Shown here one piece after another: positions 1 to 36,034 of a stretch of 64,000 nt of DNA (position 1 is its first letter; every line of letters begins with the position of its first letter). The notes beneath the pieces are model-generated. The model was not told the origin of the DNA. It saw only the letters and a list, made by a program, of their open reading frames with translations, and searched no databases. The translations under genes were made by a program, and so were the position numbers. The stretch is from Amoebophrya sp. A120 (taxonomy: Eukaryota; Protista; Dinoflagellata): contig CAJINV010000002.1 in NCBI GenBank assembly GCA_905178155.1, positions 967,809-1,031,808 of the forward strand, in the 5' to 3' direction.

Positions 1-22
1 TGCGATACTTTTGCACAGGATA
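1..22. mobile_element. End of an introner (truncated by window edge)
   Basis: tgcgatacttttgcacaggata matches the right end of introners at 39114, 47643 and 48723. Confidence 0.8.
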
Positions 23-433
23 TCTACTCCTCAGCGTTTGTTCGCCAGAGAAAGTAAAACTGGACCGAAGAAAGTCACGCTCATCTGCGGGATGAAGATC
101 TTGTTCCCTTTTTGGCGGAGGGCGCTCCTGCTGCAAAAACATTGCCTGCTCCTGCTGGTGCGCCTTTTGCAGCACTAGTTCACGTAGAGATCGTGCCACG
201 GTAGTAGAAGGCCGGTCTACTTGAAAGAACGGGGTACTAGCAACACCATGTTGTCCTCCTGCGTCGAGTTGTGGAGAAGGTTGCTCCGCATCTTTTTGTC
301 CACCTTCCGCGGCCAGAAATTCTTCCAGTTGCTGGCCCGACGGGGGGCGGAATAAACCCGAATTGCTCCTGGTCTTCTCCTTGTCGCTGTCAGCCACGGC
401 GACCACCTCTTGCTCCAGGTCGTGCTGTTCCAC
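23..433 (-). CDS. Host gene A, downstream exon (uncharacterised protein, continues off window)
   Basis: Stop-free frame VEQHDLEQEVVAVADSD...GEQTLRSR; joins in frame to exon 21793-21906 when 434-21792 plus one TCCAC is removed. Confidence 0.75.
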
Positions 434-1018
434 TATCAAATGCAAAAGTGTCTGGGTCTGAAAGTAGAGTGCAGACCTTTGCGATGCGGTTTTTGCCTAG
501 CCCAGACCCGATCTGGGCAACATGCAAGCGCTAGCATCCCAGATTCCGAGCAGGTACTTATCCCGATGCCGAATCCACATTACAAATGCCTTCTTTCTGT
601 AAGAGCCTGCACGATTAATCGACCCCCTTCTCGATACCGAGAAGCCCCCCCGAGTCCGGATTCTGACCGACCTTACCCCCCCACGCCCCCCTTCTCGAAA
701 TCGGGGGGCTTTTTATCGCGAACCCTCCGTCCGAAACTGAACGCCAATGCTACGGCGCATTCTGCGCCATTCCTTTCTTTTTTAAGATTACAGCGCCAGA
801 CGCGGTCTCGCTTCGAGTAGATGCTACTTAGTAGCAAGCGAAACAGACATCGCCCACGCTGTGGCGCTTTTTCTATTTTATGTAGTTTTTCCCGAAAGAG
901 CGCAGTCAGCTGGCGTTTCGCTCGGCTCGCTGGTTTTGCAGCGCTTAGCAAAAAGCAAAGTAGCCCCCTGCTTCTTCTGATGTCGGCCACTATTATCGCT
1001 AAGACGGCCAGGAAGTCG

Positions 1019-1140
1019 TTGGGGGGAATGAAGGGCGAAAAAGTAAATATAAAGTTAATGACTGTAATCCTTAACTATTTAGGATAGATCTGATACATGT
1101 CTCGGATAGATCCGGATTTATCACGGATAGATCTTGGATT
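1019..1140 (+). repeat. Left TIR and subterminal GGAT(A/T)(G/T)ATC repeats of the hAT element
   Basis: TIR followed by ggatagatc/ggatttatc copies; 17-bp tgatacatgtctcggat (1091-1107) perfectly inverted at 20348-20364. Confidence 0.8.
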
Positions 1141-1801
1141 TGAAAGGTCGCACGCCGACTTTTTCGAAAAAAAAACAAAAAACTTTGACCGAATTTGCAT
1201 TGTTTCTCCTTGCATGAACAGTCGATCGCCGTGGGTTAATAAGGGATGCCCACTCCCCCGGATTGATCCCCTCGTGTAGATCTATCCACAGCGCGCGACA
1301 ATTTCTGGACCAGATATGTGATCTTTCGTTTGATCGTGACACGTGATCGGCTATCTTTTTCGCAATGTTGAAGAGTATGATTTGACGGAGTGAAAAAACA
1401 TATGTGTCGGCAATCGAGGCAGCTCTTGTGATGTTTCTACGCCATCTGAACGCGTTTTGGTTTTGCTTATGTCCACTTGCAGTTACATTCATGATAATGA
1501 TGTTGATTGTCAACATAGAAGGAATTCTGACTCAGCATCGAGCTCAAAACAGTGGTCGAAATGTAAATGTACCTCTACAACGTGCATGTCATGACAATGA
1601 GAGGAAAGTAAAAACATCATCAACATTCAACGAAGAGCTTGAGCGCATACGTCTATACCGCACAAGAAACGAAGGATCAACTTAAACCTAAACATACAGC
1701 AGTAGCTGCGTCATAGATAACGTGTCTCTCATTGCTTGTAGTGTCGATCAAGTGTCACGCAAACGCTTTTCCTTCCCATATCGTTATCAACCACGATCAC
1801 A

Positions 1802-2564
1802 TCACTTGGATTTCTTCTTGCTCTTCGGCGCCGAAGATGACGATGAAGAGGCCTTGGCTTTGGACTCCTCCTTGCGCTCCCACTCTCCGTCATCGTTCTT
1901 CACGACACCGACCAAGTCCGGGGCGTTGTTCACAATATCTTCGTCGGCCTGAACGTAATTTTTAATCTTTTTCATTTTGCAACTGAAGTTGAAGTGGATG
2001 CGCAGGGTTTGAGTATCATTTTAATTCTCGTCTCCATTTGGCTTTGCTATACATGAAAGCACGCAGCTCAACTTCATTCATATTGATATTCGTGCATGTC
2101 TACAAATGCTGACACATATGCACAACAAAAAACAGCACCACGAGTGTCACGTTGATGGACAATCCCTTCCGCTTCGGATCCACGTCATCCGGAAGCACGA
2201 AACCCTCCAACTTCACGGCTTTGGGGCCGATCTTCTTCCAGTACGGCACCGCTTTGGGCACCAAGTGGCACGGCGTGTCGTTGGGCGTGAACTTCATCGC
2301 GGACGAGTACTTTTCCATGATCGCGCACATCGCCAACATGTCCGGGTCGTCACCGATGTCGACGCTGTGTTTGCCGTCCATGGACTTCATGACAGGGCCC
2401 TCCATGTTGAGAGCAATGGTCTTCAAGTGGTCCTCGGAATGTTTCGCGTTGACCTTGCGGCCCTCGGCAGCAACCAAGGCCTCGATGGGGATTTTCGGGG
2501 CGTCGACCTTTGTGAACTTCTCCATGAAGTCCGCGATGTCGTCAGACTTCGGGTGGCGGGACAT
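1802..2564 (-). CDS. Cargo gene 3: small uncharacterised protein, 2 exons (about 2140-2564 and 1802-1955)
   Basis: MSRHPKSDDIADFMEKF... with strong GC3 bias; second GC3-rich segment VQADEDIVNNAPDLVGVV...SKKKSK*; AT-rich intervening sequence. Confidence 0.65.
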
Positions 2565-5500
2565 TTTTTTTGGCAAGTGGAGCCGCGAACTACCGGAAGT
2601 TTTTTTCTAGAAAGTGCAATTGCGAAAAAATTGCCGCAGTTACAGTATCAATAAAAGATGCGGAAAGGCAACAGAGTCAAAGCTGTGATGTGTGAATTTT
2701 ATGAACTGCAAGTGGTCAAGCATACAACGCCCTGAAGTATTTGGGTTTGTGCAGTCAGTTGGGGCACGCTTTTGATTTTCTGTTGGCATTTTGATTTTTA
2801 TTTTCCGATCCACTGAGTGATGAGTCTGAGTCTCAGGCTCAAGCTCAACGCAAATTTAAATATTTTGCGTGATCTGATCGCGAAGGTACTTTCGCGCTCT
2901 TCTCATCTTTCAGAAGGGTCTGCCGCTACCCTGACTCTGGCCATTCGTATTCTTGGAACTCTTGTTTCGCTTTTGATTTTCATTTTCATACTACTGCAAA
3001 TGCTACACTAGCTTGAGATGTGGCTGTGCCTGTAGCAGTAGCTGTGCTTGAGCTTGTGCATCAGTCTCCGGCGCCGACAATAAAAGGGAAATCATCAAGA
3101 ATGAACACCAGGTCTTTCAGCTCCAGCGAAGTGGGCAAAAAACATGCAGGCAACGACCGCCGTCATTTGATTCCCCGTAGCAACTAGTGCAACCACTTGA
3201 GTGCATGAATCTGAGTGTGAAGTGACCTCACGCGTCATCAACTGCATCAACGACAACCTCAGCAGGAGCAGCACGGAGATTCTGCTAAAAACAGTCCACG
3301 CTTAATCACGTTCGCGTTGTCATTCAATATCAATCTCAAGTGGAGAAAATAAGTGGTAAATCAGAATGGGCTACATTCCTTGCATTCTGTGTAGTAATCG
3401 ACCTCGACTTTGGTTGGCAGTGATACTTAGGCTATGCAGTAGTGATATCGGACACGCCATGTGATATCAAAAACATTATCATCTCTCCAAAGTGTTTTCA
3501 TATCATTATCATCACTATTTGCTTCGCATGCACATACTCACACTCAACGCTAGCGGTGATGTACTTGGCTAAGGAAGTGTAGCTGGAAAACGATACTGGT
3601 GATCAAAGCGAACCCGAACCGCGACGCGCATGTTTACCAGAAAGACAAACAAGCGACAGCAGTGCAGACCGATGTGACTTCTTCCACGCCAATTGACATG
3701 TAGTGAAGACAGACACTCCGACCGTCACCAGCACCACAAAACAAAGAGTGCGTGAGAATCAAATTCTGTGATCTACAGGCGAATCATAGTTGCAGGGAAT
3801 TTTTTGTATAATCCGGTAGGGGCTTTAAGGTTCAAAAGTCGCTGCGTTTCATATTTTAGATTGCCCCTCCTTGATAAAAGAGAAGAAGGCAGTAGTTCGC
3901 ACGCAGTAGACATGATTGAAATCAACCCCCTACCTTTGCATCGATGCGGAGGCACGTGCACGTAGTGGAAGATGCAGGGCAGATGGAAAATTGTTTGGTT
4001 ACACTGGTAAAGGTGAGCATAGTGGAATCGAAGCTGCGGCAAATTTAAACCTACCGGCACAAACACGGGGAAGGTGCTGGCAGTAAAAAAAGTAGAAGAC
4101 TTCAACATCCACGCACTTCAATTGTATCGAGAGTCATGATTCTTTTAAGTTCTCAGTCGCAGCTATCACGTTCACTTCCCTAGAAACAATCGAAGTAACG
4201 AATTGGCCAGGCTCAGTGCTAGTCTGATTGTTCTTGTGCTCGCTGTTGTTTCTATTACTGTTTGTGATGCTTCGCGTAGTTCCACAATAAATAGAGATAT
4301 TGAAGACATTCTGTGTGAGGCAGAGTTTGATTTTGAAAGTCAAATTCAATGACAACAACCACTCGCACGCTTTTCATCTCGAGAGAAAATTTCATTCTAA
4401 ATGATTTGACTTTCTTTTTTATGTAGAACGACCCGGAAGCTTTTTTTCATGTAGTTCTTCAAATAAAACTATTTTAATTTTTATTTTTCACAATCGATCT
4501 CTTCATAAAATTATAACTATTTTCGTACCTCAACTTCCTGATTTTATTTTCATTTAGATTGACTTTCACAAAAAATCAAATCGAAACAGATTTGCCGACG
4601 AGTTGAAGCATAGAGCTGCGACCTACAGCTTGGAAGCGAAACTCAGCAAGCCGATGATCACGTGGGCAGCCAGTCCTACGCAAGAAATACGCAAACCGTC
4701 ATACCTCGCGACATCATCAACGAGCAGCACAACCACGACCAAGCCGGGCCTCCCCATCCCCTTCGCGATACAGTAAACATTTTGGAGCAGAGAGCAGGTA
4801 TTCAATTTGTTTTATCAGCATGTATCTAGAAACGACATGAGGCGTTGGCGCAAGCGCACTTTCGTTTTCGTTCATATAGCTTGACTCATGACAGTGCGAA
4901 ACAAAAGCTGTTGCGTTTTATCTTTATGCCCTATGATTGTTGCTGTTCTAGTTTCATGCACATCTCAGCTTCCGCGTGCTTCTTGTTTACTATAAAAATG
5001 AAAATAATCGCTATTGTCGTACTGGTACTGCTACTGGTTCTGGATCTGGTAGTCGTAGTGTGGAAGTAAAAATAAACCCAAGTATCACCGCGCGACAGCG
5101 AAAGAGAAGAGGAAGCTCGAGCGATGCTGGGATTCAACAATCAAACTCGAACCGACATGACAGATCTTAGCATCAGTTCCGATATTCATACTTCAATTTA
5201 TAATTTTACTATCCTTGATATCGAAACGATGAAAAAACTATTTATAGCCTGACTACTTCATACGCCCCATCAGGTAAATGCGACCGGGACCTACAGCAAC
5301 TCTTTCAACGGTCATGCACAAATGACGGTGACTATCTCCATCGCAACAGAGGCGCAACGGTGATAGTCGAAACCACAAATCTGATACAGCGACGCGGTGA
5401 TAGGTTGACGCCGTGTCCGAGCAAGTACGAGCGCGGCAACAGCAGCACACGCAAAAACTCCGGACTGGGAAAAGCAGATCCAAATGGCATAGGATACAGG

Positions 5501-5986
5501 TATGAAGCTAAATGCTAACACATTGCCCGCCGATTGTGCTTGAGTCTCGGCTCCTACAGTATTAGTATTTGTATTCTCATCGTACAAAGCAAAACTATAA
5601 TGGAAGTTTTGGCGTGGTTACTATTAGGAAGAAACCGATAAGCAAGGACATCGAATGCAAGGAGCTGAGTAAAGGTTGCAACTGCAAGACCGAGAGGACA
5701 AGCATTGCTCCAGACAGCTGTTTCTAAACCTATTTTTTAATAGAGTTAGAAAGTAGAGAAACGGTCTTCACTGATTCTTGTCGTCTATAATGCTGCTACT
5801 CTTCCGATTAGAACAAGCCTCCTGAGCTTTTCTTTTTAATTTTGATTGTGGTGGTGCTGGTAGTTGTGCGTGTAGTTGTAGACTCTATGTCACTAGCACT
5901 CGCTGTAACTAAAACTATGAAAATAGAAGTAGTTTTTCCTTTCACTTTGTATATTCATTCTCATTCACTTCTCACGTTGAAGTAGT

Positions 5987-8900
5987 TTAGCTAGCCTCCT
6001 CTTCCTCGGAAGACGACGAGTCGGAGTCGGACGAGGAGACATTGTTCGCGTATTCGTCGTCATTATCTCCGTCAAAGAACTCGCTCAAATCATCCTGCAT
6101 CTGCTGGAAGTCACGCTTGTACTTCTTGACGTTGCGCTCGTACGCGAGGTCGTCGGACGCGCGGACGGGCATCTTGACGGTCAAGAACTGCCGGCTGTAC
6201 TCACCAGTGGCCTCGCAGGGACCGGTCGCGCCGGGGCCCATGGGAATCTCGACGTCGACGAGTTTAATCATCTCGGAGAATTCGTCATCCACCGGATTGG
6301 CATCAGTGGACTCCTGGCTGGTCTTCGCGGCACCGGGGGCCACGGTCTTGGCGGTATACTTCCACATGTACTTAACGCACGTGGTCGGACACGGGAACGC
6401 TTTCGCGTAGATCGACTCGTACATACCGCCCAACGACAACGCGTTCTGCGGGTGCCGCAGCTTGTTCAAAACAAACTTGCCGCCATTGTTGATCTCCTCG
6501 TCTCCGAGGTTGTAAAACTGTTTGCAGAGGCGGAACTCCGAACGCAACTTGATGAGGTCGCGCAACTTCCCCGAGGCCGGCTCCACCGCCTCCTTTTTGG
6601 ACTTCTTATCCTTCTTCTTCTCCTTTTTGTCATCCTTCTTGTCTTTCTTCTCCTCATCAATCTGCGGCTTATCCTTCTCGACCTTCGGGTACTTCACGTA
6701 GTCAGCCTTGGCGATCTCGCGGACCTTGAACCACGCCGGACTAACGTTGGATTTGTCCTTCAAGTACTCGATCGTCATTTTGTACAGGCTCTCCTCGTGT
6801 TCCTTGGCCTTCTTGGCATCAGCGGCTTTTTTGATGGCCTTTTCAGCGTCATCACCGGCCTTCACGCGGCGCGCGCTATCCTTGATCAAAGTTCCGATCG
6901 CTTCCTTGTACGGCTCCAAAACGCGGATCGTGTTGATGACGACGTGGTCCGCATCCGGGTCCTTCTTTTCTTCATAGAGCAACGGCTTCTCTTCCAGCTC
7001 GAGCCGGATCGACTCGTACTTCAAGAAATCGCTCAGCTCGATGTAGCGAAAACCGATGTCGCAGATGGTGTCGATGACGTGGTTGGTCGTAGCGATCTCA
7101 GCACCCTGATTATGACGCTGAGTTTTAGTTTTATGTCATGAGTAAGAGGAGTTGGGTTTTGGTTTGTCTCTGTCATCATTTCGGATTAAATCCCAGAAGT
7201 TAAGGCTTTGAAGCCTTAACCTAAGGGCTTGAAACCTTAGCTCAGGTTTTAGAATACGAATACGAAAATCCAAATCAAATGTTGAAGTAGAAGCACATGA
7301 TCCAAAACGCAAAAACGCAAACATGTTATGTAGTACATCAGAAGCAGCAAGGTGCTTCGCCAACTCGGCGCCGTTGTTCACACCAGCGGCGATGCGCTCC
7401 ACCTGGGATTCGTCATCCTGCTTTTGCTTCTTGCTCGGCGGGGATCTGGCCTTCTTTTCGATATCCCGCTTCTCCTTCGCAGAAATCTGCTGCTCCTCGG
7501 ACTGGCCCTGCATGGAGGACTGCGACAGCTTGAAGCTCACCATCTTGGACTTCTTCATCGACTTGGACTTCTTGGTGTCGTCGGCCACGTCCTTATCATC
7601 GTTTTTCTTGTTACCTTTGCCTTTCTTACCCTTTCCTTTCTTACCCATCTTGGCCTTTTTCTTCGCTGGACCATCTTCTTCTTCCTCTTCTTCATCTCCG
7701 GAAGCCTTATCCTTGTCCGCGTTCTTATCGTCGGCGGGGACGACATCCGCGTTGTTGTTGTTAGTGGTATTGTCGGCGTCCTGCATGATGGCGTCACCGG
7801 ATTGATCGACCAGCTCCGACTCATTCTTCGACTCGCCGGTCTCATCGGACGAGTTCTTGTTTTTCTTCGAATCATCGGCGATCGGCTTCGGCTTGACGAT
7901 GCGCTTGCGCCGCGCCATGTCTTCGCTTAACCTCCCATCCTCGGTCAACGGCATCAGGTAGCCCTGCGGCACGTAGTTCTTCATGATGATTTCGCTCCAG
8001 TTCTCACTGGGCTGGTGCCAGGTGGTGATGGTCCAGAACTGCTGCTTTCCGTCGTCGCTGGCGACACGCTGCCCCGCAGACCAACCGTACGTCGGCATGG
8101 GTTCGCCATGACTCTTCGCCACCAGCTCCATGTTCGGCAAGCGGTCGTTGCGCATCAGGTACATGTTGATGATCAGGCCCGGCAGCATTTTTATGCATTG
8201 CAAAAGTATCGCACTATCAGCAACTGCGTTTGCGATGTCTTGCATGACAAACACAGAAACAAGCCAAAATGAAAATCCATTTCTAAATCTAAATGTAGAT
8301 CAAATACAAATTTAAATACGAATTCGAAACTCATGCGCTCATCTCATGCATTATATCGTATCTGCCACTACAACTAGTTACTGGTATGAGTGCGATACTT
8401 TTGCAGTGCATAACCTTCTTGGTGTACGTGTCGTGATCGAGTTGTTGTTTCGGCTCGAGGACCCTCCTGAACACAAAACCGTCCTTGGGCGTCAGGAGCT
8501 TCACGGACGCCGGCGTTATATTTTCCCAGTTTTTCTCTTCTTCCGCTTCCGACAGGTCCATGTCATCCTCCTTCACTTCCTTCTCCTTCTTGGGCGGCGC
8601 CGTGATCCGCTTCTTGTAGTCGGAGAAGTTCTGATACAGCTGGACGATCTTCTTACGGACCTCGTTGCTCGGGTTCTTGTCGCGCATCTGGGCCGGCTTG
8701 AGATCCAGGCCCAAATCCTTCTCGACTTCGTTGATGTGACCGTTGGCGTTCGCTTGGCACAAGCGGCACAAGTTCAGCTGGTCCTGCTGCAGCATCAACT
8801 TTTCCGTGCCAAAGGCCTGGGAGATGCTGTGCTTGGTGCCGTACTTTATTTCGATGTAGCAGGCACACCACAGGTCGCACGCCTGGCTACCGATGTCGAG

Positions 8901-10466
8901 GCCCGTGAATTTAGCGTATTCGTTCTGTAGATGTAGATGTAGTTGGAGATGTGCAATTGCATGCGTAATCAGCATAGACATAGAAGCAACGTCGCGAGTG
9001 TTGTGACTGAAAAAAAAGCACAAACTAAAACAAAACAAAAACTATATAACTGAGAATAGGAGTGCGAGATTCTAGCTCTACGTCTACCTCATGCTCATCG
9101 TCGTCCTTATTACTCTGTAGCCTACAGCTTCCAATACCAATTCCTAAATAAAATCATAATCAAAATCAACTGGAACTGACGCTCATGCTAAAAAAGAAAA
9201 ATATACTTTAAACTGGGGAAACAGGTTCGCGTGCTGATCCGGATGCAACTCGCAATGGATGGTGGTACCAGTCATCGTCCACGGCTCGAAGATTTCGCGC
9301 TTCACGATGTGCGGCGTCTGTTCCACACAAACACCGGTCGTGATGCCTTCCACGCGGCGCTGGGCGTACTCCAAGATGCCACACGGGATCGCCATCGCCT
9401 CCTGGCACTGTTTCTTGTACGTGGCAAAGGATTCCTTCAACGGCTTCAGCACATGCAGTTGTTCAAAAAACTGCACAGTTTTTAATTTTTTGATTTCTTT
9501 GTGCTTGTATCGGATATGCATTTGCTTTTGCTCTCTACATGCGTGCGCGTCTGAAACGTTATCACTACTCTTTCGAAAAAGCAAAACGAACACCGAAGTC
9601 AAAGTCAAAGTATAACAGCATATGCATGACAGATTTGCATTTCAACTTGAGACGAAAAACAAAATCATAACCATTACCATAAGCAGCAAAAGTAAATAGA
9701 TAAAAAATGCAGTCGGTTTAAGAAATCCATCTCCCATATTGCGAATCTGGATAAATCTTTCGACCAACGCAACATGGTCGCTCAGGGAGTGGCGCAGAGT
9801 GACGCACTGTTTTGTTTTGATATTCATAATCTTGATCTTTGTATTGCATGAAAATAGAATCATTGATGAAAAATCAATGGCATGGCATGTATACTAAGAT
9901 GTATGCAAGACAAACACGCAACCTATCCTATATAGAAAAGAAAATGAAAATCGCGCTATACTTTCAGGCTCAGCGGCTCGACGGTCGCGAGTCCGACGTT
10001 GCCGAAAGCCTCGCGACTGTGGTTACCAGACAAGCGCCCGCACTTGTTGTCAGCAGTGGCGGAGGGACCGTTGTCGACCAAAATCATTCCTGAGGGATAT
10101 AATAGTTTGAATCTCATGCGTGATGATAGTGCAAAGCTAAAGAGTTTCATATGCATTACAAATGTTCACGAAAGACCAAAAAATCAAAAAAAAAGCTGTA
10201 CTCCAATCATTTGCCGTGTATCTTCCGATCCGGAGGGCGGTCTGTAATTTGAGTACTTGAAAGGGATTACAGTCCCTGTTTAGTTTGTGTTTCTTCGTGA
10301 CGTCCAAGATAGCCTGGGTCAACGGCCGCACAAACACACCATGCTCATCCGGAATTTGGAACGTGTTGATGGTGAAGTTGCCGATCTCGGTGGTGGTTTT
10401 TTGACGATTGTCATAGAGGAGGACCTCCTTTTCCGTCTGTGCGACGGTCACGGAGGTGTGCGCCAT
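5987..10466 (-). CDS. Cargo gene 2: multi-exon protein with N-terminal ParB/Sulfiredoxin-like motif and K/D/E-rich C-terminus
   Basis: GC3-rich exons at about 10200-10466, 9963-10093, 9210-9470, 8413-8925, 7355-8190, 5987-7105; motif ILVD...GRLSGNHSREAFGNVGLATVEP resembles ParB GxH(R)xxA; domain call is by eye. Confidence 0.6.
8192..8412. mobile_element. Degenerate introner inside cargo gene 2
   Basis: IR tatgcattgcaaaagtatcgcac ... gtgcgatacttttgcagtgcata; TSD not recognisable. Confidence 0.7.
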
Positions 10467-10658
10467 CCTGTGGTCGGAGAGTGTGTGGTGCTCTCCGACA
10501 AGTTGAAAACGACTACCAGAAGTAGATGATTTGAAGCGAAAATTGTCTCTCAGCTACGGGCTTTGGGATGATGGTGAAGGTTGAATTGGCATGAAATCAA
10601 TGTGAATTATCCTCGCGAGTTGTTCACTTTGCGATCAAATCTGATGATTTTCAGAAGA

Positions 10659-10831
10659 TGCAAAAATCATCATTTTGGATTAAATCCCAGAAGTTAAGGT
10701 TTTGAAACCTTAACCTAAGGTTTTGAAACCTTAGGCTAAGGTTTCAAAACCTTAGGTTAAGGTTTCAAAACCTTAGGCTAAGGTTTCAAAACCTTAACTT
10801 CTGGGATTTAATCCAAAATGATGATTTTGCA
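10659..10831. repeat. Foldback palindrome with five 16-bp quasi-palindromic units at 21-bp period
   Basis: Arms tgcaaaa(a)tcatcattttggattaaatcccagaagtt; units aaggttttgaaacctt at 10696 and 10717, inverted aaggtttcaaaacctt at 10738, 10759, 10780; degenerate half copy at about 7173-7250. Confidence 0.9.
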
Positions 10832-11531
10832 ACTCTTTCAAAGTCATCATTTCTCATCCAAAAAAAGATCTCCGACAACACTTTCAAAGCAACTACACAT
10901 CAACAAAAACCACCGACGAAGGAACGAAAGTCACTACTTTTGCTCTCAAAAAAGGTGTCAAAGAGCAGAGCTTTCCTTTGCATTTGATCAAAAAAGTGTC
11001 TGGAACGCCAGCAATTATCTGCATAAAAAACACGGCGGCGCCCTCCTCGTTGTCTCTCGCAGAGCAACCGCAACGCCATATATTAGAGATTTTCCAGCTC
11101 GTTGAAGTAGCTCTAGGCGCTGGAGTGCAAAGCCTATTGCTTCTCAATATTCATTCTGCACATAGAAACCCAAAGAAAAGCTCGAAGAAATCAGAAAGAA
11201 AAGCTCTAAGAAATCAGAAAGAGAAGCGCACTATTTTAGCTGGAATACTTTTGCACTTGCCGCAGTTTCTACATTATACAGCGCAGGAACCTTTTGCGAA
11301 AAGCGTCTTTCTTGATCGTTTTTTCCAATAGCTGCAACAGCTTACTCCGCAGCTTCTATCTGTAGTTATACTTCTTTCGCTGTAGATTTGCGTTCATTTT
11401 TATTCCTTATTATATTCCTAATACATAGTCAGCGCAATAACAATAAGAGCACCAGTTCAAGTAGGATTAAGAGTAGTGATGTGGAAAGTGCAAACGCGCT
11501 ACAGGTGCAAACACAGAGACATATGCAAGCT

Positions 11532-13528
11532 CTACCGCCAAGGCTCACCGTCTGAGTCATCATCTCCGCTGCTGCTTCCAAAACTTGAATCACTTTCCAA
11601 CTCCGAATCGCTTCCGTCGTCACCTGCCGCTGAGCCCGCTTCGAACACTTGCTTTTTGAACTCCTGGCACACTTCCGCTGCTTTCTGCTTTTGCGCCGGT
11701 GTCGGCATAACAAACTTTTTGGGAAGTTTGTCCTTTGCGCCCACGATGTTTGCCTTGATGTAGTTGCACATGTCCAAAGACACCTGCAACCGCGAAGATT
11801 TTGTAAAGCACCGCCGAGATGCTTTTTTTTTCGTCTTTAATTCGCCGGCACCACTCCACTGCAGATAGGATGTCTTCTTTGTGCTTCGTAAGCACGACCC
11901 CCGCCACACATTCGTCTCCGGATTGTACGTGGCGTACCCGTTGTACGCCTTCCACAGGTTGCTTATCATCATTTCTGGTTGTGCATCGATCCGGTTGAAC
12001 GTCTTCCACTTCTTATCCCGCTGCCGCTTATTCAACATTTGCTTGCGCTGCCGAGCAACGAGGACGTCGTCGTCTTTTTTGTTTTCTCCTTCGTCGTCGC
12101 CAGGCAACAAGCCCTGCAGAAGATCGGCCTTTTTTGTTTTTCGTTTTTTCTTCAGTTCCAACAAAGACCACGTTTCCCGCTTCCCGTATTCTATCAACGC
12201 GAGCTCCTCCGTCTGCATCTCATCCACGAGAGTCTCCCCGTCTTGCGCCACGTACTTCTGGTCCACACTGCTCTTCCATTTCGCTGACTCGTCGTAGTAG
12301 ATAGAAAATCCGCCATCCGAATCACTATCATCATGTCGGACAGAAAAACCGGAAAAGTCAGCACTTTTCAACCGCAGTGTGAGTTTATGTTCGTCTGTCA
12401 CCACGCCGCCGTTGATGTCTACGAACGTGGTGGGCCGTCGCTTCCGGGAAAGGTTGTTCACATTCACGGCGCAGTCAACCATAACTGTTTCCCTCCTGTT
12501 CGGGTCCAACTCGGTTTCCTCTTCCTTGATCTCCACTTCCACTCCGCCGATACTGATGTCGATGTTGTTTTTGCCATGCAACAAGAGCTGCTTTGGCACC
12601 GCAGCAGAAGAAGATGATGATGACACAGCGGCAGTCGAGTTGTTCATCGGACGCACATCTTCATCTTCTTCGTCTTCCTCCAGAATAGGCGGCAGCAAAG
12701 TGGTATGAAGATGCGAGCTGTTCGCGTTCTGCTTCTTCTTGTTCCGAGTTTTATTTTTCAAAATCGTATCTACATCCAGATCGGTTTCGTTGTCTTCCCG
12801 CACGTCCTCGTCAGGATTTTTGCTGATAATATTCGCTTCTTTTTTACTTCCGGCCGCGTGCGACGCCGCTACCACCGCCCCACTCTTGTTAACGTCTTGT
12901 TCTTTTGAAGATGCTGCTTTCTGCGTTTTCTTTTTCCCTTTTTGCTTGTTGTTTTCACCTTCGTCTCCTTCGGGCAAAAACTCCGCGCTGCCATCATTTT
13001 GCTCTTCCCCGGACGTAGTTTTATCCGCTTGCTCTTTCGGAGGATACCAGGCGGCGTATCTGTAGATTAGTTCCGACAGCCGCATTTTTTGCTCTGCATC
13101 GACGTAGTATTCTCCAGTACAATCAACGTCGTCGACTGCTACTAGGTGCGCGTCATTATTGCAGGAGTCGACGCACAGCCACTGCGTTTCGATCTTGGGT
13201 GCATCGGGCCGAAGTTTGAAGTAGATCAAAGTACCCGGCACGATGTCAGTCTCCGACATGCACAATGCCGGCCACTCTGCTTTCCTCTTTGTCTTAGCGC
13301 CTGTTATTGCCCGGCCCGGATTGTAAAAGTTCTCCTTGCCGAAGTGCTTCTGAATCACATGACACACGTCACTGAAAACGATCATCGGCGAGGAAGTGAA
13401 ATACTTCTTGGCTTGTCCGCTCCTCCGCGCGTGAGGGCAGCACACCTTGTTGCGCGCGTCCTCAAATTGCTCAAAGGCTGCCAGGTAATTGTTGCGGTTG
13501 AAGCCCCTGGAGTTTTGTACTGCGTTTC
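11532..13528 (-). CDS. Large exon/ORF in the hAT element: C-terminal extension of the transposase gene or a separate cargo gene
   Basis: 637-aa ORF, frame open up to a stop at 13527-13529; same strand, about 200 bp downstream of the last transposase exon; splice junction not resolved. Confidence 0.6.
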
Positions 13529-13730
13529 AATGTTGATCATTTTCATTTAGCTCTCGCTCATTATCAGTCACGTCGATGATTTTACATATGCACTAGCATG
13601 CAAGTGGAAAACTAGATCTAATTGCAAAAGTGTAAGTCATAGCAAATGTAAATCTAGATGACAACAGAAATTGAAATCGAAATGAAAATTAAAATTTTTT
13701 AAAAATAAAAAGCCAGCAGCTTTTTATTTT

Positions 13731-16700
13731 TTATTTTTCCCAGTACCTTGCCGACGCCAACTCCATCCCTAAATTTCCAGTGTTGACCTCGCGGTGTATC
13801 TCCGTCGACGTCGAGTTCAGTTTCTCGCAGTCCTGACTCGAAGGGAAGAGTGCGGACAGCAGCGGTTTGAGGTCGGCCACAAAGGCCGGCGACCAATTCG
13901 GTATTTGATCCGGTTCAGGCCCGTCTATCGTCGCGTCGTCATCAGCCGCTCGTTGTAGTTCACCGGGAAAATCTTGGAAAAAGTCGAAGGAAATTCTGTC
14001 GAGTTTGCCCTGTTTCCCAAGGCGGATCAGATCCTGTGCTGTAGCCCGCACCTCGCCGCCCCTCATGAGGCCGTGCAACCGGTGTGGAAAGCTCCGTAAG
14101 GGTTCCTGCCGATGAAACAGGTCGTCGATAATGCGAAGAAACGTCAAGCAGCACCGCCCGAAGGCATCCTTCGCGTTCCCCAGTTGCATCGTGGTCAGCG
14201 ACAAGCGGTTCCACAAGCGGGCTTTCTCGATCGGCTTGACACAGTGGCGGGCCAACTCGAAACTATCCGCCCCAGAAGTCGACAAGCCGTGCGACCGCAT
14301 CACGTCGGCAGAGCAGTCGAGGACGACACTATGCTAATGAAAAAGTAATCTTCAGGCTCGCTTGCGTGAAGCTAAAGGTAAGGCTACGGAGAAAATCTAA
14401 ATCTCGAAAATCTAAATGCAAATCACAATGTAAATGATAACGAAGTAGAAGCTGTGGCTGTGCATGCACTTACGCTAATAGTTCCACACATACTTATAAT
14501 TTGTATATTCATTTGCATTAACGATAAGCAGATGCAGACGCAGATCCAGAGCGTCTGCGACTGCGTGGTCGTCCAGGAATGTAATGCAGAAGCAGCAGTG
14601 CCACCACTGCGCCACATTCTATTTCTCTTTAAATTCGTAATCGTATTTCTATTTGTATTGCAATTTCTATTTCCTGTAATGCAGAAGCAGATCCTATAGA
14701 TAAAGACCAGCCATGATTATGCCTTACCTTTAGACTTTACTTCTACCTGAAGACTCATTCTTCAAATCACATCGCCGAAGGGGAGCGGGAAGGTTGCAGC
14801 GTGATAAAGATCCAGGGAGCTCTTCAGTGCGGTAATGCAAGTCCACCACGGTTCGCTGGTAACTGCAGTCCAGGCGCGTCTGATTAAACTACTTTTGTTC
14901 TTCTGATATTTCTTCTCCCGGTCTGCTGCTAGTCGTGGAATATTCACCGCCAGAATGGGCTTCTGTTTCATCAGCCCACTCACAGTATTCGCCAAGCTGA
15001 GCCAGCGGGTGCGCACGTAGTGGCTCACTTTTTTTGGTGCATCCTGCACTTCGTCGTCGTGATTGAATTCTGTTTTGCCAGCATCTTTCCGCAACTGCAG
15101 ACGATTGCCCGACTCAGTCGCTTCGTGGTATGCCCGCAGTTCGTCTCCTTTCAAAGCCTTGCCGTCGAGAATGACCTTTCCCTCGCGCATGAACTCCTCC
15201 ACGTCCTGCATCACAACCTCCTGGTCTCGCGCCCGCGCGTCCCGCCGCTCTTTTTGTTTTCGCACATCACCGACAGGAATAATGCCTTCACGATCTTCCC
15301 GCGGTGCACGCTTGGGAAGCTCCTTCTTCGTGAGAAACATACTATTAATGACTTTACTCACTGCTGTTACTGTCTTCTCGATTTTCTTGCCATAGGCGGC
15401 AGAGATGCACTGCAGGGCGGTTTTTCCCAAATTCGACATCTCTATGCATTGCAAAAATGTAAATCAAAGTACCGCAGTAGTCCTAGCATTACACACAGCA
15501 TATGGCTATGGATACGGTGTCCACGCTTCTTTTTGTTTCTCTTTCACTTTGTCATGCGCGATCGCGTTCGCAACTAATAGTAGCGATACTTTGACTTGTG
15601 GTTTTGCACAGGATAATATGATGGAGCTGGCAAAAAATCGACGTGCGTGACCAGTTCGGTTCTGCCGGTCGCTCTACCACCCGCCGCGTCTTGTTTTCGC
15701 AGCGAAGAGCTTCGGTCAGGTACACCGTATTGTCTCCCAGTTTGACCATGTCTGATCCACAATCGGACGCTGTGATGCAAGCAGGCCTTGACGGGGGGAG
15801 GTACCCGCCATACTCCATGTTGCTGTAGACCCCGGGCAGGGGTAGCCCCACCTTCCACGCCTGCTCCCAGTATTCTCCGAAAATTAACCATCCCCATCCA
15901 AAGTGCACGAAGAAGTAAATCATCAATTTTCCATTTTTGCATGACAAACACAAAACGCGCAACATGTTTTGCATGACAAACACAGCATGGAGCTGGTGAC
16001 GAATAGGGATTGTTAATTTTCAAGGAATAAGTATATGTCGTCGACTACCGACAGAAACCCGCCCTCTGTTCCTATCGGCTCCAACGAGAAGTCATACATC
16101 ACCACATCTTGCCCGTTGTTGATGGACCTGAATAAGTACACCTTGGCGCTGAGCTGCTTCACGTCGCCGAAAGGGGTACTGTCCGGCACGATCCTCGTTA
16201 CTATTTTCGGTGGCCTGTTGGGATTTTGGCCCGGATCAGTCGCCACTCCATTGCTCGGATCTGAGCAAGGTGGGTAAACTAACTGTCGGTCTCCGTCCCA
16301 GTTCAAATGACTCGACTCAATTCGTTCCCGCCTTCGCATCTCCTCATCTGTTTCTCCACCTTCTTGTTCTACCAGCTCCAAACTATTAGTGTTACTGCTC
16401 GCCGACAAAAGAGCGCTTTTTGCGGCACTGCTCAAATTCTTCTTGTTTAATGTGAAAACTGGAAGAACAGACTCGCTCACCTTGTAGCTCAAGCCCTTTT
16501 TCTTCGGCGGATCGTCGTCCATCATGGTCGTATCAACTGCAGCTAGTTGTGTGTGCTGCTGTCCGGATTCGGAATCTGTATTGCTGTTTTTGAGATGATG
16601 GTGGCGGCTGCTGTTTGGAGCCCGTGTTGGCGCGCTTGTCAGTTGTGTGCTGTCGTTATTGTTTGTCGGCAAGCTGTTGCTCTGGCTTTGTTGGGCAGCT

Positions 16701-18811
16701 AGATCTTGTGTATCTGCGTCCTGCAATACATGTGCAAAACCGTACCGCTTCTTCTGGTCAGCTGCTCTTGCTACTTTTACCATGCCGGGAGTTGCATAAA
16801 AATTCAAAATCTTCATCCGTATGATAAATCGCAGTGCGTCTCGGTACAGAAATTCGTCCCGTTTGGCCTTCATCCTGTACTTCGCCTTCGCGCGAGCGAT
16901 CATCATTTTCAAAACCGTCCTCATGTCCATCGCCTCTGCGGCGGATGTTCCGGACCGCGCCGATACTATCGCGTCAGCGTAGAGGTGCGGGCTCATGTCT
17001 GGCAACGCTTCAAAAGCTTGCAGTAGTTCTTCGTCGTACGCCTCGACTACCGCGCTCTCGTCTTCCTCGTCAGACTGGTCCAGCAACGCATAGTCATTTT
17101 CATCATAATCGTCCTCCGATGATGATGAGCAAGAAGCGTCTCCCGGATCTTGCTGTTTGTTTTTCTTCTTCTTGTTTTGCAGTTGCTGTTTGCTTCCTGC
17201 CTTTCCACTGGTGATTGCCGCTTTCGTTTTTTTACTACTTTTTCCAAGCTGTTTGCGTTGCGGTTTCGTGAGCTTGTTTTTCACTGAGCTCGCGCTCCGG
17301 ATGTTGTCATCATTGAGGCTGACACTACCTGAATCCGAGTGCGAATCTTGTCTATTAAAATTCCACAAGTCACCGACATCGGTCTCGTGAAGCTGCAGCT
17401 TGTTGCCATCGGTCGGCCCTTTGTAGTTTTTCATTGTATTTTTCACCGAAGAAGAAGAACTGAAGTTGAAGCTTGAGCTTGGCGACGTTTTATTTGGTAC
17501 GAACGGAAGGCCTGCATTTCCACTTGCCATTTTTTCCTCATGTTCGTCGAAGTCTTCTTCTTCATCGTACGCCTTTTGTCTAATGCCGAGTTCTGCAAAA
17601 GCGTTTCGATACGGTACGAGGGAGCTGCTGGAATTATTGTTGTTGTGCGCGGAACCGCGCGCGCGGACTTTTTGTTTTTTCATTTGCTTCCGAACCTCCT
17701 TGCGTTTTTTTTTCTCCTCTTCCTTTCTTTTTTGTATCACGGCTACCGGCAAATCGTCACCCAAGATGTCATCTTCCTCGTCTTCGCAACTGGAACTAGA
17801 CGAACTGCTTGAAGCCACCTCTTCGCCCAGTCTCGAAGACGAAGAACCAACTACACCTGCGCTGCGTGTTCCTGCATGTACGGAAGCAGCTCCAGCACTA
17901 CTGCTCGTCGCTGGGTTGAAGAAGTTGCTTGCATGCGGCACCGCCTGCTGTTGTATGGAAGTAGTAGCTCTCTTTGGCTCCGCTCCCACCTCCATGTCAA
18001 TGTCCATGTCCTCAACCACTTGGGTCTCCTGGTCTCCAGCCTTTCGCTTCTTTTGTTCTTGCGCTGCTACATCTTCAGCACCTCCGCGTTTGGCGATGTC
18101 TGCTTTTCGTTTCAAAGCCTTTTGCTCTTGTCGGTCTTTCTTTCGTTGCATTCGCTCACTTCGTTCTTCAGCAATCGCCTGCAGCAATGCATTTCGTAAA
18201 TTTTGATCCGAAACTGCGATGTCGCGATTGTCGATCATCCGGCTATCGAGATCATCTTTCACCACCCCCGCAGCCATCAAGACCTGTCTTGCGCGTTGGC
18301 CGCCCGTTCCACGACCCGAACCAACGAGCCACGCGTTCCGGAGCCACTTTCTTTTCTTCGATGCGGATGCTGGTAGTGTTGGAAATCGGACTTCTGGCTC
18401 GTTGGGATCACCGCCGCCTATATCTCCGCTGTCTTGCATCTTTTTTGCAAGGTCTGCTATTCGGGCCTCTTCTTCCTCTTCCTTCATCTTTTTTTTGCTC
18501 ATGTACTTTTTCTTTACTTTCTCGTCCGCCGGAACGTCGTCGGGCATGAAGCGACTGTAGTAGATGTTTTTCACAAAGTCCTGAAACGAAACGCCCTTCT
18601 TTTGTTCATTCTTCCAGCTTACACCTAAAGACTGCTTGGACGGTATTGTTTTCCGGGCAGATGTTTTTTCTAACACCTTTTCTGTTTTTCCGTTCTCTAC
18701 TGCCCACTCCAATAGCCGAATAAGATCTGCAACCGTTTTGCACTGATCCATGCGCTCCTGCAGCCCCTTCGTGGGGCCGATGGTGATTATTTCTTTCTTC
18801 GTCCGCGCCAT
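13731..18811 (-). CDS. hAT-family DDE transposase, very large, intron-split
   Basis: Exons about 16015-18811, 15616-15925, 14765-15442, 13740-14330. Motifs in correct order: RIVPDST..QLSAKVY (D 16181-16183), TASDCGSDMVK (D 15762-15764), CQLH (15621-15632), VRTRWLS (TRW 15002-15010), LLSALFPSSQDCEKLNS (E 13824-13826). Confidence 0.8.
15443..15615. mobile_element. Degenerate introner inside the transposase gene, just after the CxxH motif
   Basis: tatgcattgcaaaa ... ttttgcacaggata; flanks atctc/atatg. Confidence 0.7.
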
Positions 18812-20340
18812 AGCAGTAGCGACGAGACGAAGACAACTAACCCAACGCCAAACAGCTTACGAAATAAGCAGGGCAAAGCCGAGGAGGATGTGGATGCGGA
18901 TGTGCACGCGGATGGCACCAGGTAAAAACATTTTTTCCTTTTTGATATTAATATTTGTATTGCTGTTACTTCGTTTTGTTATTAGTTTGATTTTCAAAAT
19001 TTAGAAATTGAAATAGTAATAGAATAGAGATATGAGTAGTGTCAAAGTGAAAGCTCATACGCATAATCATACACGTTCTGCCTCAGCTTTGATGCTGAGG
19101 CTCAAGGTTAGTTCTAGTTTTCCTTGTGTTGGTGCTTGTAGTAGTTGTGTTAGTTCTGGTTCTCAAAGGAGTGCGTATTCGTATGCGAAAACGAAATCGA
19201 AAACGAAATCCAAATCAGAGTTTCAAAATAGAAATACTAATAAGAATAAGCTCAGCAATAAAATGTTTTATTTTCATTTTCAATTACAAGATCAACAAAA
19301 TCAAAATAGAAATACCAAAAAAACGCAGGTTGCTAAAAGTGAATGAAGCGATGACGAGTAACGGAAGTTTTAGCACGAGCAAAGTTGGACACTCAAACGA
19401 TTATCGCTACCTATAGCAGTGCAAGCTCGATGACGAAAGCAACACGCTGGAGGACCTGCTTTTATGACTGTTTCGATTTCGAGAAGCTTTGCAATGATGA
19501 AAAGGTAGAAAACCAAAACAGATGAATAGGCAAAACGATAGTGGCGACTTTGAATTTGATTCACAGCGATTTGATGCGATTTGATTTGTATTGCAGCGAT
19601 ACCTGCAACCACGCACACTCACACTCCCAAACGACACGGCGACGCTTGAACCCAATTGCAATTTGTGTCATGGCGTTTTATTGTTTTACTTTTGGTTTGT
19701 GCGAAAAGTACTACCCGCTCTTTTGCGCTCTATCTCAAAATCGAAACCTACTGGCTTCCCAACGACAAAAACAACCGACACCAACCAAAACAAAAAACAG
19801 CCTTCAATGTACCCAAATCAAATGCACAAGCAGCGCCACGCTATGACGAGCTTCGACTTTACCTTTAGGAACATCAAATCAAAAATAATACGACGAGGGG
19901 ACTCAGCAACCACCTACTAGCTCGGGGCGTATCAATGCAACTTGTGCAATTCCTACTATTTCGCTTTTTGTGTCGTTTCTGTTTTGCATAAACAAAAAAA
20001 ATGCACAGCAACTATCGTTCATTGAGTTCCTTTTCATCTTGCTCATCGTTTTACTTTCATTTTCTTGGTGTTGTTGAAACAAATTCGACCATCACACCGC
20101 CGCAACACCACGCCGAGTTGTAACGTCGCCACACTGTTTTGCATCGCTTCCACCTACCTCTGATCTTCGACAACATTACGACTGTGGTTTGAAAAGTATT
20201 AATTTTGAACAGAAGTCTCCATGTTTTTCGCGTCTCGGAGCAGACCATCAAGTTCAGACCGACCATCCGAAACAACACCACAACGCTTCGCCACCGACCT
20301 CCGACAAGATGAAAAAAACAACGAAATAATTTTTCAACTT

Positions 20341-20456
20341 TAGATTAATCCGAGACATGTATCAAATTAATCCGAGAATGTACCGGATTTATCCGACATA
20401 GTTAAGGACTACAATCATTAACTTTATATTTACTATTCCCTCTTCATTCCCCCTAA
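20341..20456 (-). repeat. Right subterminal repeats and TIR of the hAT element
   Basis: attaatccg/atttatccg copies then the reverse complement of the left TIR. Confidence 0.8.
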
Positions 20457-20694
20457 GGAAGTCGCTTATGAACGGACAAAATACAAATTGGCCCCAGTGC
20501 GTGCATAAGTATAGCGCCACTAGAATCAATGAAACAAGCGACCTACGAGAATGGCGCAGCGAATGGGGCTCCGCCCGCTTTCAATTTTTCCAGCCCCGGA
20601 CGGGGTAGAAGCAAGCTGCACTTTCACCGGGGGCATCGGGGCTTTTGCGCAAACCTACCCGCTCTATACAGGCGGCCTTTTTCCACCCAAGCGG

Positions 20695-20950
20695 CTGGGC
20701 GGAGAAAAGCCGTCTTGGAAATTCAAAAAATTTGCAATTTTCAAGCGGGCTTGTTTCCAAAGACTTGCTCGAGGAAAAGCTTTCGCGTGCGGTCGGGTGG
20801 AGAAAACAAAGCCCGCGTGAAAATTCAAAACATTTGGAATTTCCAAGCGGGACTAAACTTTCTCCAAAGACGTGCTCGGGAAAGATTCTTCTCGACCCAG
20901 TCCATGGGGAAAAACCCGGGCGGAAATTCAAAAAGTTAAAGTTTTCGACT
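20695..20950 (+). repeat. Three imperfect repeats of about 100 bp within the TAA element
   Basis: gaaattcaaaa...aatttt/ccaagcggg recurring near 20719, 20819, 20924. Confidence 0.6.
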
Positions 20951-21792
20951 TCCAGGGTGGTTCTTCTTCACCCGGGCCCCTCGGGAGTCGCTTTTTGGAG
21001 AGCAGTTGTAGCGCAGCTACTTCGCAATAGAAACACCCTGCGCGCACGCAGTAAGACAACAGATCTCGCCCCAAGTAGATCCCGGAAATCTTTTTCGCAA
21101 CCTGCGGCCCCTTTTTCAATCGGGCCTTCTTTTATACGCTTCTCTCGAGTGTTGTCCTCTCTATGGGGGACGCGTCGCTCTCTACGACAAAAAAAACCAA
21201 TAAAGCGCAGCAACCGCTTGCTTGCGCCCCTGGCCAATTGCTGTCGGCCTCTTATTTGGCATTGTGTGGCGGGGCTTTAGAATTCAAACTTTTTCGCACC
21301 TATTCCTTTTGTGGTGCGCTTCTTGCGGATCGCAGTTTTTCATTTACGACTCCGTTCTCTTTCTTGTTGGTGGTGGTGTGGTTTCTAAAAAGTCAGAACC
21401 TTTTTAGAAACCACACCAAGAAGAAGAGCTTCTGCTCCACTAAGAAGAGAAAAAAGTAAAACCGCACTACCACCCCGCGCCCGTATTTTCTGAATTTGCC
21501 ATCTTTGGCGCGGTGGACGGGGGAGTTCCGATTTTGCATTTTGGATTTTTGAAGTCCGATTTTGGATCGGAGTAAATCGCTGAGGTTTTGCGACGGCCGG
21601 ATGACCGACCGCACCTACCCCCCCCTTCTCGGTATCGAGAAGGGGGTCGATTAATCGTACGGGCTCTAACAGGAAGTGGGGCCACCTTATTTTTCTGACC
21701 AACATGCAGCATGGCAGATTTTGTTCGATGATGTAGAATTTGCATCACAAATTCGAATCCATCCAGACCCAGATCGATATCTGCAATGCATA

Positions 21793-21906
21793 TCCACATC
21801 ACTGTTAATACCATGGTCCACGGCGTCCTCAGAAATCGCCTGGTGCTCCATGTGCTTCAAAAAATACCGCATGTCCTCGTCCGTCCTCTCCTCCGAGATG
21901 GGAAGG
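21793..21906 (-). CDS. Host gene A, middle exon
   Basis: LPISEERTDEDMRYFLKHMEHQAISEDAVDHGINSDV, in frame with both neighbouring exons. Confidence 0.75.
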
Positions 21907-23035
21907 TACTAACTTGAAATTTGTCTGCAGCTAAAAAAATCAAAATTTTTGGTAGTGCAGTTCTTGTTCTTCTCTTCTCGCGGCCCGGACTGCAGCCCGC
22001 TTGCGAGCGCTGCGGACTCCGTGCTGGGGAACTTGGCCGAGGTGTTGCGCTCCATTCCTGCGTCATTTGCTCGAAGGTCCCCCACGCGCTTGATTTGCTA
22101 GCTCCACACGGAAATGCGGCAACAGGTAGGGGCTTCCGACTGCCATTTTTCGGGGAAGTTTCGCACCTAAGATAACAACATGACGCGAGCCTCCGAGAGG
22201 TGCTTGGGCGCAGAGCCCCTTCCCCCAAAAGTGGCAATTTGTAATGCGCGTTTCGCATTACAAATGGCCTTCTTTTATGACCCGTCTTGGGCTCGCTCTC
22301 CGGGCCAGGTCACAAATCTGAGCCCCTGGATCAGCAGAATGCCGTGCTGTGAGGGTTCAGATTTTTGATGCAAAACGTGGCTCCGCGAAAAAACTCTGCA
22401 CCTCGGCAACGAGGTCGCCAAGTGGAGGTGCAGAGTTTTTTGGCGCGAGGGGGGGAAAGTGGGGCAGATAGCTCGTGTTTGTCTGCGCCGCCAAAAAACT
22501 CTGCACCTCCGAAATTGGCCTCCAGATGAGGTGTCCTCGGACACCTCTTCGGAGCCCTCCCGAGTCGCGGACCTCCGGGGCGACAAATTTTGGCCGCCCT
22601 TTTCGCATTGCCCCGACCTGAATCGAGCTCAATTTGCAGGCAGAAGCCTGCAACTTGAGCTCATCCCTGAGTCGACCTCCTCCGAGGCCGCGAGGTTTGA
22701 ACCAAAAGCGAGCCTCTGCTTCAGCAAATTCAACTCATTCCCAAACAAGACACTCACTAGGTAAATCGTCAGGAATCAGGAGGGAGTGCGGGAACTTGAA
22801 GACCTACAACTGCGAACCCGGGTGGACGACGTCCACCGATAGCGAAGCACCGAGTCCCCCGGTGGCTGAGCTGTCTCCTCTGCTTCGTCCGCCGAGGCCG
22901 TGCCGGAATACCTGGCCTGCCCATTTCCTTGATTTCGTTTCATTGTGAAAAAAAAGAAACACACAAGAAGGTGCCCGAAAATGTAGGATGCAAAAATTTT
23001 GATTTTTTTAGCTGCAGACATTTTTCAGTTTAGTA
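21907..23035. mobile_element. 1.13-kb TIR element with a 38-bp flanking direct repeat, in host gene A
   Basis: 45-bp TIR tactaa(ct/ac)tgaaa(tt/aa)tgtctgcagctaaaaaaatcaaaatttttg; DR 21869-21906 vs 23036-23073 (37/38 identical) abutting both TIRs. Confidence 0.85.
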
Positions 23036-34765: not shown

Positions 34766-35176
34766 TTTTGTTCATCACATGGTAGTTGAAAAGAAGTCGT
34801 GTCGTCTTCTGCTTGCATCAAGAGGAGATGCAGCCAAAAAGACAACTTGTGAAAGTAGCACGCGGCACCAGTCGCGGTTGCAAACGAAAAAACCCGGTAA
34901 TCTTTTTGGTTTTCATCCACTAGTACTTCTCGCAGAGGCAGATGCGGGACCAAAGAGGTAGTGGAGCTCCTGGAGAAAACAACTCTCATCTCTTTATTTT
35001 CCTGTCGTCCGCGTAAGTTCTTTCGGGCATGACGGCTTAGACACGCAAAAAAAAAAGAGACCCTGAGGCTGTGAGACCCAAACCAGCGAAACACGACGGC
35101 AGCGTGGTTTTTTTGTGTTTCGAATGACGGGAAAAAAATAAGCATACCGTCGTGATTTCGATTTGTGTGTTTTTTT

Positions 35177-36000: not shown

Positions 36001-36034
36001 GGCTGGGGTAGTGCGTACCACGGGAGAACGGGCT

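Follow-up and report, generated by a model that had tools for sequence, protein, structure and literature searches.

A 21-kb nest of three transposons in a non-canonical intron of Amoebophrya sp. A120, with the flanking exons joined in a deposited protein

The introners of the dinoflagellate Amoebophrya sp. A120 start with TAT, carry terminal inverted repeats (TIRs), lie next to a 5-nt direct repeat, have non-GT-AG borders and form repeated families (PMC7789003; PMC12130899; these and all other papers are cited for the passages drawn on here). The non-canonical introns of this strain typically average 240 nt, in analyses limited to introns of 40-1,000 bp, and U1 was not detected in it (PMC7789003). 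How introns are removed in Amoebophrya with neither GT-AG borders nor a detectable U1 is an open question, and it is one on which the gene described here bears. In a window of 64,000 nucleotides of the A120 genome (contig CAJINV010000002.1, positions 967,809 to 1,031,808 of the forward strand; all positions below are those of the window), we have analysed an intron of the gene GSA120T00022442001 whose outermost element resembles the A120 introners in all the features listed. In contrast to the typical ones, it is 21.4 kb long, contains two further transposon layers and genes, and has a decayed repeat of its own.

The nest is exact. From the outside inwards, an introner (layer 1, 434-21792) contains a TAA-flanked TIR element (layer 2, 603-21666), which contains a 19,438-bp element (layer 3, 1019-20456). 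Layer 1, with the ends TATCAAATGCA... and ...TGCAATGCATA, lies between two copies of the target-site duplication (TSD) TCCAC (429-433 and 21793-21797); layer 2, with a 42-bp TIR of 95% identity, lies between TAA copies at 600-602 and 21667-21669; and layer 3 lies between copies of the 8-bp sequence GGAAGTCG (1011-1018 and 20457-20464), which occurs in the window at these two flanks only. The termini of layer 3 form an inverted match of about 89 bp with 85% identity (1019-1107 and 20370-20456) and disagree at base 3. Given the base composition, the per-site chance of such duplications is 1.6e-5 for 8 bp, 1e-3 for 5 bp and 0.016 for 3 bp. Scripted removal of the layers left 1,618 bp, then 292 bp, and then an open host frame on the minus strand. 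The original prediction, made from the letters of the window, had drawn these three elements with TSDs of 5, 3 and 8 bp, emptied sizes of about 1.6 kb and 292 bp and a continuous host frame, and all its coordinates proved correct; the one refinement is that the TSD of layer 3 can also be read as the 9-bp AGGAAGTCG if the right end is moved one base inward. We infer that the outer elements were inserted first, and since the genes of layer 3 carry three more introners, the nest is four deep.

Layer 1 has three of the traits by which A120 introners are recognised: a pairing inverted repeat (imperfect, of about 27 nt), a TAT start (at both ends) with a direct repeat of 3-5 nt (here 5 nt, on both sides), and membership in a repeated family. 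Stand-alone copies of the 292-bp introner, which were expected from the original prediction, do exist: the window holds eight relatives of 252-345 bp, six of them with a perfect 5-bp TSD. Emptied layer 1 is colinear end to end with all eight, through the TAA site (53-66% identity), and the interior alignments score z values of 3.7-11.0 against shuffles. Because these alignments run through the TAA junction, they back the weak 3-bp TSD of layer 2. In the window as a whole we counted 72 inverted-repeat pairs ending in TA(T/C), the eight relatives among them and many overlapping, against 2-3 in three shuffles.

The joining of the flanking exons is recorded in a deposited protein. The host gene encodes CAD7931915.1 (P0002; Amoebophrya sp. 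A120, 794 aa), the sole match to the host exon 3 query among 748 candidates, with one cluster member and one contig in its record. The protein maps in order to three exons on the minus strand (23435-23037, 21905-21798 and 433-17), 307 aa of it within the window and with no internal mismatch, and it reads GINSDV-EQHDLEQ, precisely the junction predicted across the nest. When all junctions that reproduce the protein were enumerated, they defined one intron of 1,134 nt, with 4 placements, and another of 21,364 nt, which has GT-AG borders in none of its 6 placements. The A120 gene models were built on aligned transcripts and proteins, not ab initio, the ab initio tools having failed at non-canonical sites (PMC7789003); since the annotation used such alignments and the deposited protein holds the junction, splicing gains support. 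As the protein has no Pfam family and no other relative among the 748 candidates, a transcript is the likely source of the junction; a metagenome scan confirmed none of 24 candidate relatives. Splicing across the nest, by whatever RNA route, is therefore likely in our judgement. It would not stand alone in length: the longest annotated A120 intron measures 35,152 bp (PMC7789003), and five A120 families have 3' splice coordinates above 13,000, read as alignment columns (56 of 58 Dataset S2 rows; PMC12130899), namely fam9 (23,826; 2,231 members, with a 278-bp element and a 30-bp TIR), fam135 (18,837; 4 members), fam3 (16,127), fam1 (15,545) and fam21 (13,922), which suggests that long nested members recur among the annotated A120 introns.

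The first intron of the same gene is informative about where the cut falls. A 38-bp direct repeat (21869-21906 and 23036-23073, with 1 mismatch) brackets its TIR element, which ends in TACTAA, and in the deposited junction the element and 5 nt are taken out while an 11-aa duplication stays in the protein. Since only the element and 5 nt are removed in spite of the 38-bp repeat, the cut follows the ends of the element and not the direct repeat.

How so large an intron might be recognised can be approached through predicted pairing. The first 30 nt of layer 1 (host strand) form a duplex of -24.9 kcal/mol with the 3' end of that layer, which outranks all others among 466 candidate ends, and the end-to-end duplexes of the inner layers reach -81.3 kcal/mol (layer 2) and -109.1 kcal/mol (layer 3). 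When the outer halves were co-folded together with the arms of layer 2, both end helices of layer 1 and a 46-bp layer 2 helix formed; with the arms the outer halves had a pairing gain of -55.3 kcal/mol, and without them one of -12.5 kcal/mol. In the mechanism that we propose, each inserted element would bring its own terminal inverted repeats, which would pair in the pre-mRNA and loop out the interior; this nested zipper would hold the halves of the old introner together nearly as in the 292-nt original, restoring the short loop, and the non-canonical machinery of the host would then cut at the introner ends, taking the element and 5 nt. On balance, and with moderate confidence, we infer that all 21,364 nt are removed from this allele in one step, in cis, as a single non-GT-AG intron.

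Several points weigh against this view. The 5' end of layer 1 would pair almost as well with the end of the introner at 8192, inside layer 3 (-24.7 kcal/mol, 0.2 behind the 3' end of layer 1 itself), and the end duplex of layer 1 is weaker than those of all eight stand-alone copies (-29.8 to -48.0), so that end pairing by itself is a poor guide over 21 kb. The folding energies were computed from trimmed ends and are silent on kinetics over such a distance. The modelled inner genes are co-oriented with the host gene, and their own 3'-end or leader processing could cut the precursor. Finally, selection for splicing cannot be shown, since the host gene has no known relative. The claim of the original prediction that, if the host gene is still spliced, splicing defined by inverted repeats works across 21 kb has thus survived in part: the exact junction stands in a deposited A120 protein, although it comes from one gene model, and the end duplex of layer 1 is the best available, but the outer repeats do not by themselves single out the 3' end.

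The orientation of the inner genes also bears on a different route, in which their processing would cut the precursor into two RNAs with ends of their own, and the nested inverted repeats would keep these together for splicing of the exons in trans. All homology-supported inner exons lie on the host strand, a leader is trans-spliced onto at least 37.8% of A120 transcripts (PMC7789003), and folding predicts that the outer halves, taken as two strands, would pair with the gain of -55.3 kcal/mol given above. Nevertheless, no deposited inner-gene protein was found within the lengths searched, and intron-nested genes are common in another dinoflagellate, Amphidinium (25.2% of genes), without such a mechanism being invoked in the passages cited (PMC12584245); we consider trans joining quite unlikely. 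We would place at about the same low level a stepwise, twintron-like removal, in which the inner layers leave first by their own inverted repeats, the hAT-like element before the TAA element, so that the small introner is restored. The far stronger pairing of the inner TIRs would suit such an order, and the A120 introner family fam86 is, at 1,619 bp, close to the 1,618 bp of emptied layer 2, a coincidence of size only; but the TIR of fam86 measures 84 bp against 42 bp in layer 2 (PMC12130899), and layers 2 and 3 do not have the TAT start typical of A120 introners.

Two further explanations bear on the insert itself. The spliced transcript may have come from cells or from a copy lacking the big insert, whether through a recent or polymorphic hAT insertion, excision at the DNA level or an unannotated duplicate, in which case the 21-kb intron would be a product of mapping and the allele may be dead. 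The transposase model is free of stops, so that the element could be mobile, and the RNA dates from a study that preceded the genome paper (PMC7789003); on the other hand, the record of the protein has one member on one contig, its 307 aa map here without internal mismatch, the disagreement at base 3 of the layer 3 termini fits some age, and even without layer 3 the intron would still be a 1.9-kb nest. This makes an insert-free source unlikely in our view. That an error of assembly placed a repeat inside the intron is highly improbable: Illumina scaffolds were indeed combined with long-read ordering (PMC7789003), but the three matched TSD pairs stand in nested order, the 8-mer is found at these two sites of the window only, the stretch contains no N, and removal of the layers rebuilds a normal member of the introner family. 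One-step removal in cis is the reading that we retain. A far more general proposition we regard as doubtful: that the U1-less splicing of A120 is blind to length and content, so that any block between paired inverted repeats goes as element plus 5 nt, even 21 kb with co-oriented genes; that, should those genes cut the precursor, the exons would be joined in trans over the RNA zipper; that nested TIRs strengthen the intron and do not break it; and that introners are havens for autonomous transposons, an intact giant hAT taking along the introners of its genes whenever it moves.

Layer 3 is very probably a hAT element, judging from the motifs of its predicted enzyme and from the homologues. The transposase model joins five minus-strand exons (18811-16030, 15868-15616, 15440-14771, 14333-13747 and 13506-11532) through two introner introns and two GT-AG introns, the borders of the latter being approximate, without a stop, and the gene is likely intact. 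A HMMER search with it gave three matches: P0003 (1,278 aa), P0004 (Amoebophrya AT5.2 g13352.t1, 2,480 aa) and P0005, a TPR/CHAT protein that was dropped as a chance match. In exon order, P0003 matches exons 1-4 and P0004 the full set of five, and neither is interrupted at the two introner sites. The putative catalytic residues, which were assigned by motif and conservation and not by significant alignment to Hermes, lie in DxTPFG (D877), SDxGSD (D963), TRW (R1157, W1158) and SQDxExLNS (E1405), and a CQLH motif is also present; both homologues have the D, D, R and W, and one of the two (P0003, not the AT5 model) has the E. An alternative first D, in YDFS, was rejected as the homologues are without it and the conserved D sits in DxTPFG. 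The AT5 protein fuses the transposase with a homologue of accessory gene B (Table 1) and lacks the stretch of the catalytic E; the gene model may be wrong, or the copy dead.

In Hermes the corresponding residues are D180, D248, R318, W319 and E572; the spacing from W to E is 247 in the layer 3 enzyme versus 253 in Hermes, and that from the second D to RW is 194 residues versus 70 (PMC6027215). Elements of the hAT superfamily have TIRs of at least 8 bp and a TSD of 4-8 bp (PMC6027215), and in layer 3 we find the terminal inverted match of about 89 bp and the 8-bp TSD, with the 9-bp reading possible. Against the hAT TIR consensus (T/C)A(A/G)NG, the right end reads TAGGG on the 9-bp reading and TTAGG on the 8-bp one, and the left end reads TTGGG. 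Mutator/MULE elements are characterised by a 9-bp TSD, a long G-rich TIR and a MULE-type transposase. With its 9-bp reading and long TIR, layer 3 could be one of these, yet hAT is favoured by its TRW and SQDxE motifs and by the match to Hermes.

Profiles and folds give the hAT assignment suggestive support only. The transposase and its homologues had no hAT-related sequence match in Pfam or the PDB, and a Pfam scan of the 947-aa N-terminal open reading frame (ORF) gave nothing, the BED zinc finger included. The Atlas yielded a FAM200-like cluster (0.87), which counts as no more than a lead, and offered no usable named match for exon 4, whose single-sequence fold had a mean predicted confidence (pLDDT) of 41.8. 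For a core model of P0003 (pLDDT 49.6), Hermes (8edg) ranked third among 48,161 chains, tied with unrelated helical bundles (Z 9.2, root-mean-square deviation 3.9, 170 residues aligned, chain range from residue 249), and Foldseek placed Hermes at rank 37 with an E of 2.3. The hAT label of the original prediction consequently holds by motifs and homologues and not by any significant profile or fold match. None of 205 candidates in a metagenome scan with a transposase exon was confirmed as a relative, no deposited protein for transposase exon 3 was found among candidates of 409-2,000 aa (the model itself exceeds 2,000 aa), exact look-ups of deposited proteins for the inner genes returned 0 of 10, and the 64-kb window has no second copy of the layer 3 ends.

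Layer 3 carries more than its transposase (Table 1). Five of the six exons of gene B match P0004 in order, directly after the transposase part of that protein (pairwise E 2e-3 to 6e-8); given the same order there, the pairing of transposase and gene B is of long standing in Amoebophrya and not the result of a single capture event. No deposited protein for gene B was found among candidates of 652-2,000 aa, and gene C matched neither Pfam nor P0004. Just upstream of gene B lies a long palindrome of 21-nt units (10628-10863), with a partial copy at 7173-7254 in a gene B intron, and about 4.5 kb of layer 3 (19000-20300 and 2600-5900) has neither long ORFs nor homologues; small genes or decayed cargo may lie there. 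The three introners within these genes have in-frame lengths of element + 2 or element + 5. A perfect in-place 5-bp TSD is missing in all three, versus 10 of 32 elsewhere (p 0.044; n = 3, in a set picked by eye), which hints that they are older than the arrival of the hAT here and travelled with it. The introner at 32750-32858, in a host gene, has internal sequence in common with the transposase-gene introner at 15871-16029, and host and element thus draw on related introner families.

Table 1. Features of the nest and its host gene (window positions)
Feature	Positions	Strand	Remarks
Host exon 3	17..433	-	P0002 aa ~169-307; holds TSD copy 429-433; gene runs off the window
Layer 1 introner, 3' half on host strand	434..602	-	includes TAA copy 600-602
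Layer 2 TIR element, left part	603..1018		TIR 603-644; 8-bp TSD copy 1011-1018 at its end
Layer 3, hAT-like element	1019..20456	-	19,438 bp
Gene C, likely cargo	1802..2564	-	~200 aa, two exons; G+C at third codon positions (GC3) of exon 1, 0.82
Accessory gene B	5987..10466	-	about six exons, ~1,050 aa
Introner in gene B	8192..8412		of all rivals, its 3' end pairs best with the layer 1 5' end
Modelled transposase gene	11532..18811	-	~2,088 aa, five exons
Second, decayed introner in transposase gene	15443..15615		both homologues without it
Introner in transposase gene	15871..16029		both homologues without it
8-bp TSD copy and layer 2 right part	20457..21666		TSD copy 20457-20464; TIR 21625-21666
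TAA copy and layer 1 5' half on host strand	21667..21792	-	TAA 21667-21669; introner 21670-21792
Host exon 2	21793..21901	-	P0002 aa ~134-168; with TSD copy 21793-21797
Host intron 1	21902..23035	-	1,129-bp TIR element (21907-23035) + 5 nt
Host exon 1	23036..23435	-	P0002 aa 1-133

The middle layer is less easily classified. Elements of the PIF/Harbinger group duplicate a 3-bp TAA or TTA target, and are recognised by transposase and Myb/SANT genes or by a TIR in common with an autonomous partner. Layer 2 resembles the non-autonomous members in its TAA duplication, the palindromic context of that duplication (CTG-TAA-CAG) and its G-A-G-C-C termini. Emptied layer 2 has no long ORF, and the 64-kb window contains neither a second copy nor an autonomous partner; as it has no coding capacity and no relative was found, we describe it as working like PIF/Harbinger and do not file it as one. 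The stand-alone 1.6-kb copies anticipated earlier did not appear in the window, which is the sequence searched, and the layer 2 TIR pattern had 0 matches in viral contigs. A longer TIR with TAA flanks (593-21676) was ruled out, having no TSD and flanks that align to the layer 1 family. Within layer 2, at 20691-20937, there are three repeats spaced about 102 bp apart and partly inverted to each other.

Whatever its route of removal, the gene offers two natural experiments: an intron of 21.4 kb whose outer repeats have decayed and which has a rival end in its interior, and a neighbouring intron whose junction ignores a 38-bp direct repeat. That introners act as safe landing sites for large elements, as the original prediction went on to propose, is a hypothesis drawn from a single locus: of 35 introner-like elements picked by hand, one is such a case, which speaks for tolerance and shows no preference. 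The introners in the hAT genes suggest a vehicle for introner spread; the layer 3 enzyme itself is probably not the mover of introners with a 5-bp TSD, because its own TSD is 8 bp. Elsewhere in the window, a GC-rich satellite occupies 35175-36900, in which short GGGGATCCGCC units give way to longer palindromic ones, and a GC-rich block (63-66%) at 29150-30650 between AT-richer genes is possibly another insertion.

Ordinary hosts of intron-nested transposons keep GT-AG signals that are read by U1 and U2. The nest described here shares features with several known systems and departs from each of them: (i) Like twintrons, stwintrons and nested transposons in spliceosomal introns, it is an element within an element inside an intron; unlike them, it has no canonical border on either side. 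(ii) The nonconventional introns of euglenids are similar in their non-canonical borders, TIRs that join the ends, TSD-like repeats and unknown mechanism of removal, whereas they measure from dozens to several thousand nucleotides, belong to another lineage, show a different border pattern and, in the passages cited, are not reported to contain a gene-bearing transposon (PMC11282704). (iii) Layer 3 agrees with Hermes and the large hATs in its 8-bp TSD, TIRs, D-D-RW-E order and CxxH motif. It differs from Hermes and from ToxhAT, a 14-kb cargo-bearing hAT (PMC12506042), in its size (19.4 kb), in a transposase of about 2,088 aa that has no Pfam match and whose long N- and C-terminal parts are unexplained, in an accessory gene that is kept in AT5, and in the introners within its own genes. 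(iv) Putative transposases were reported in strain A25 only (PMC7789003), hAT is the final class in 0 of 56 A120 rows of Dataset S2 (PMC12130899), and no DNA transposons were identified in Amoebophrya Kv according to the passages cited (PMC12005148); a likely intact hAT transposase is at odds with the published statement that A120 is without transposases, and our literature search turned up neither this nest nor a hAT of A120. Taken together, the parts of this locus are of known kinds, and it is their scale, the likely intact transposase lodged in a non-canonical intron, and the opportunities that the gene itself provides for testing the splicing rule that are new as far as we have searched.

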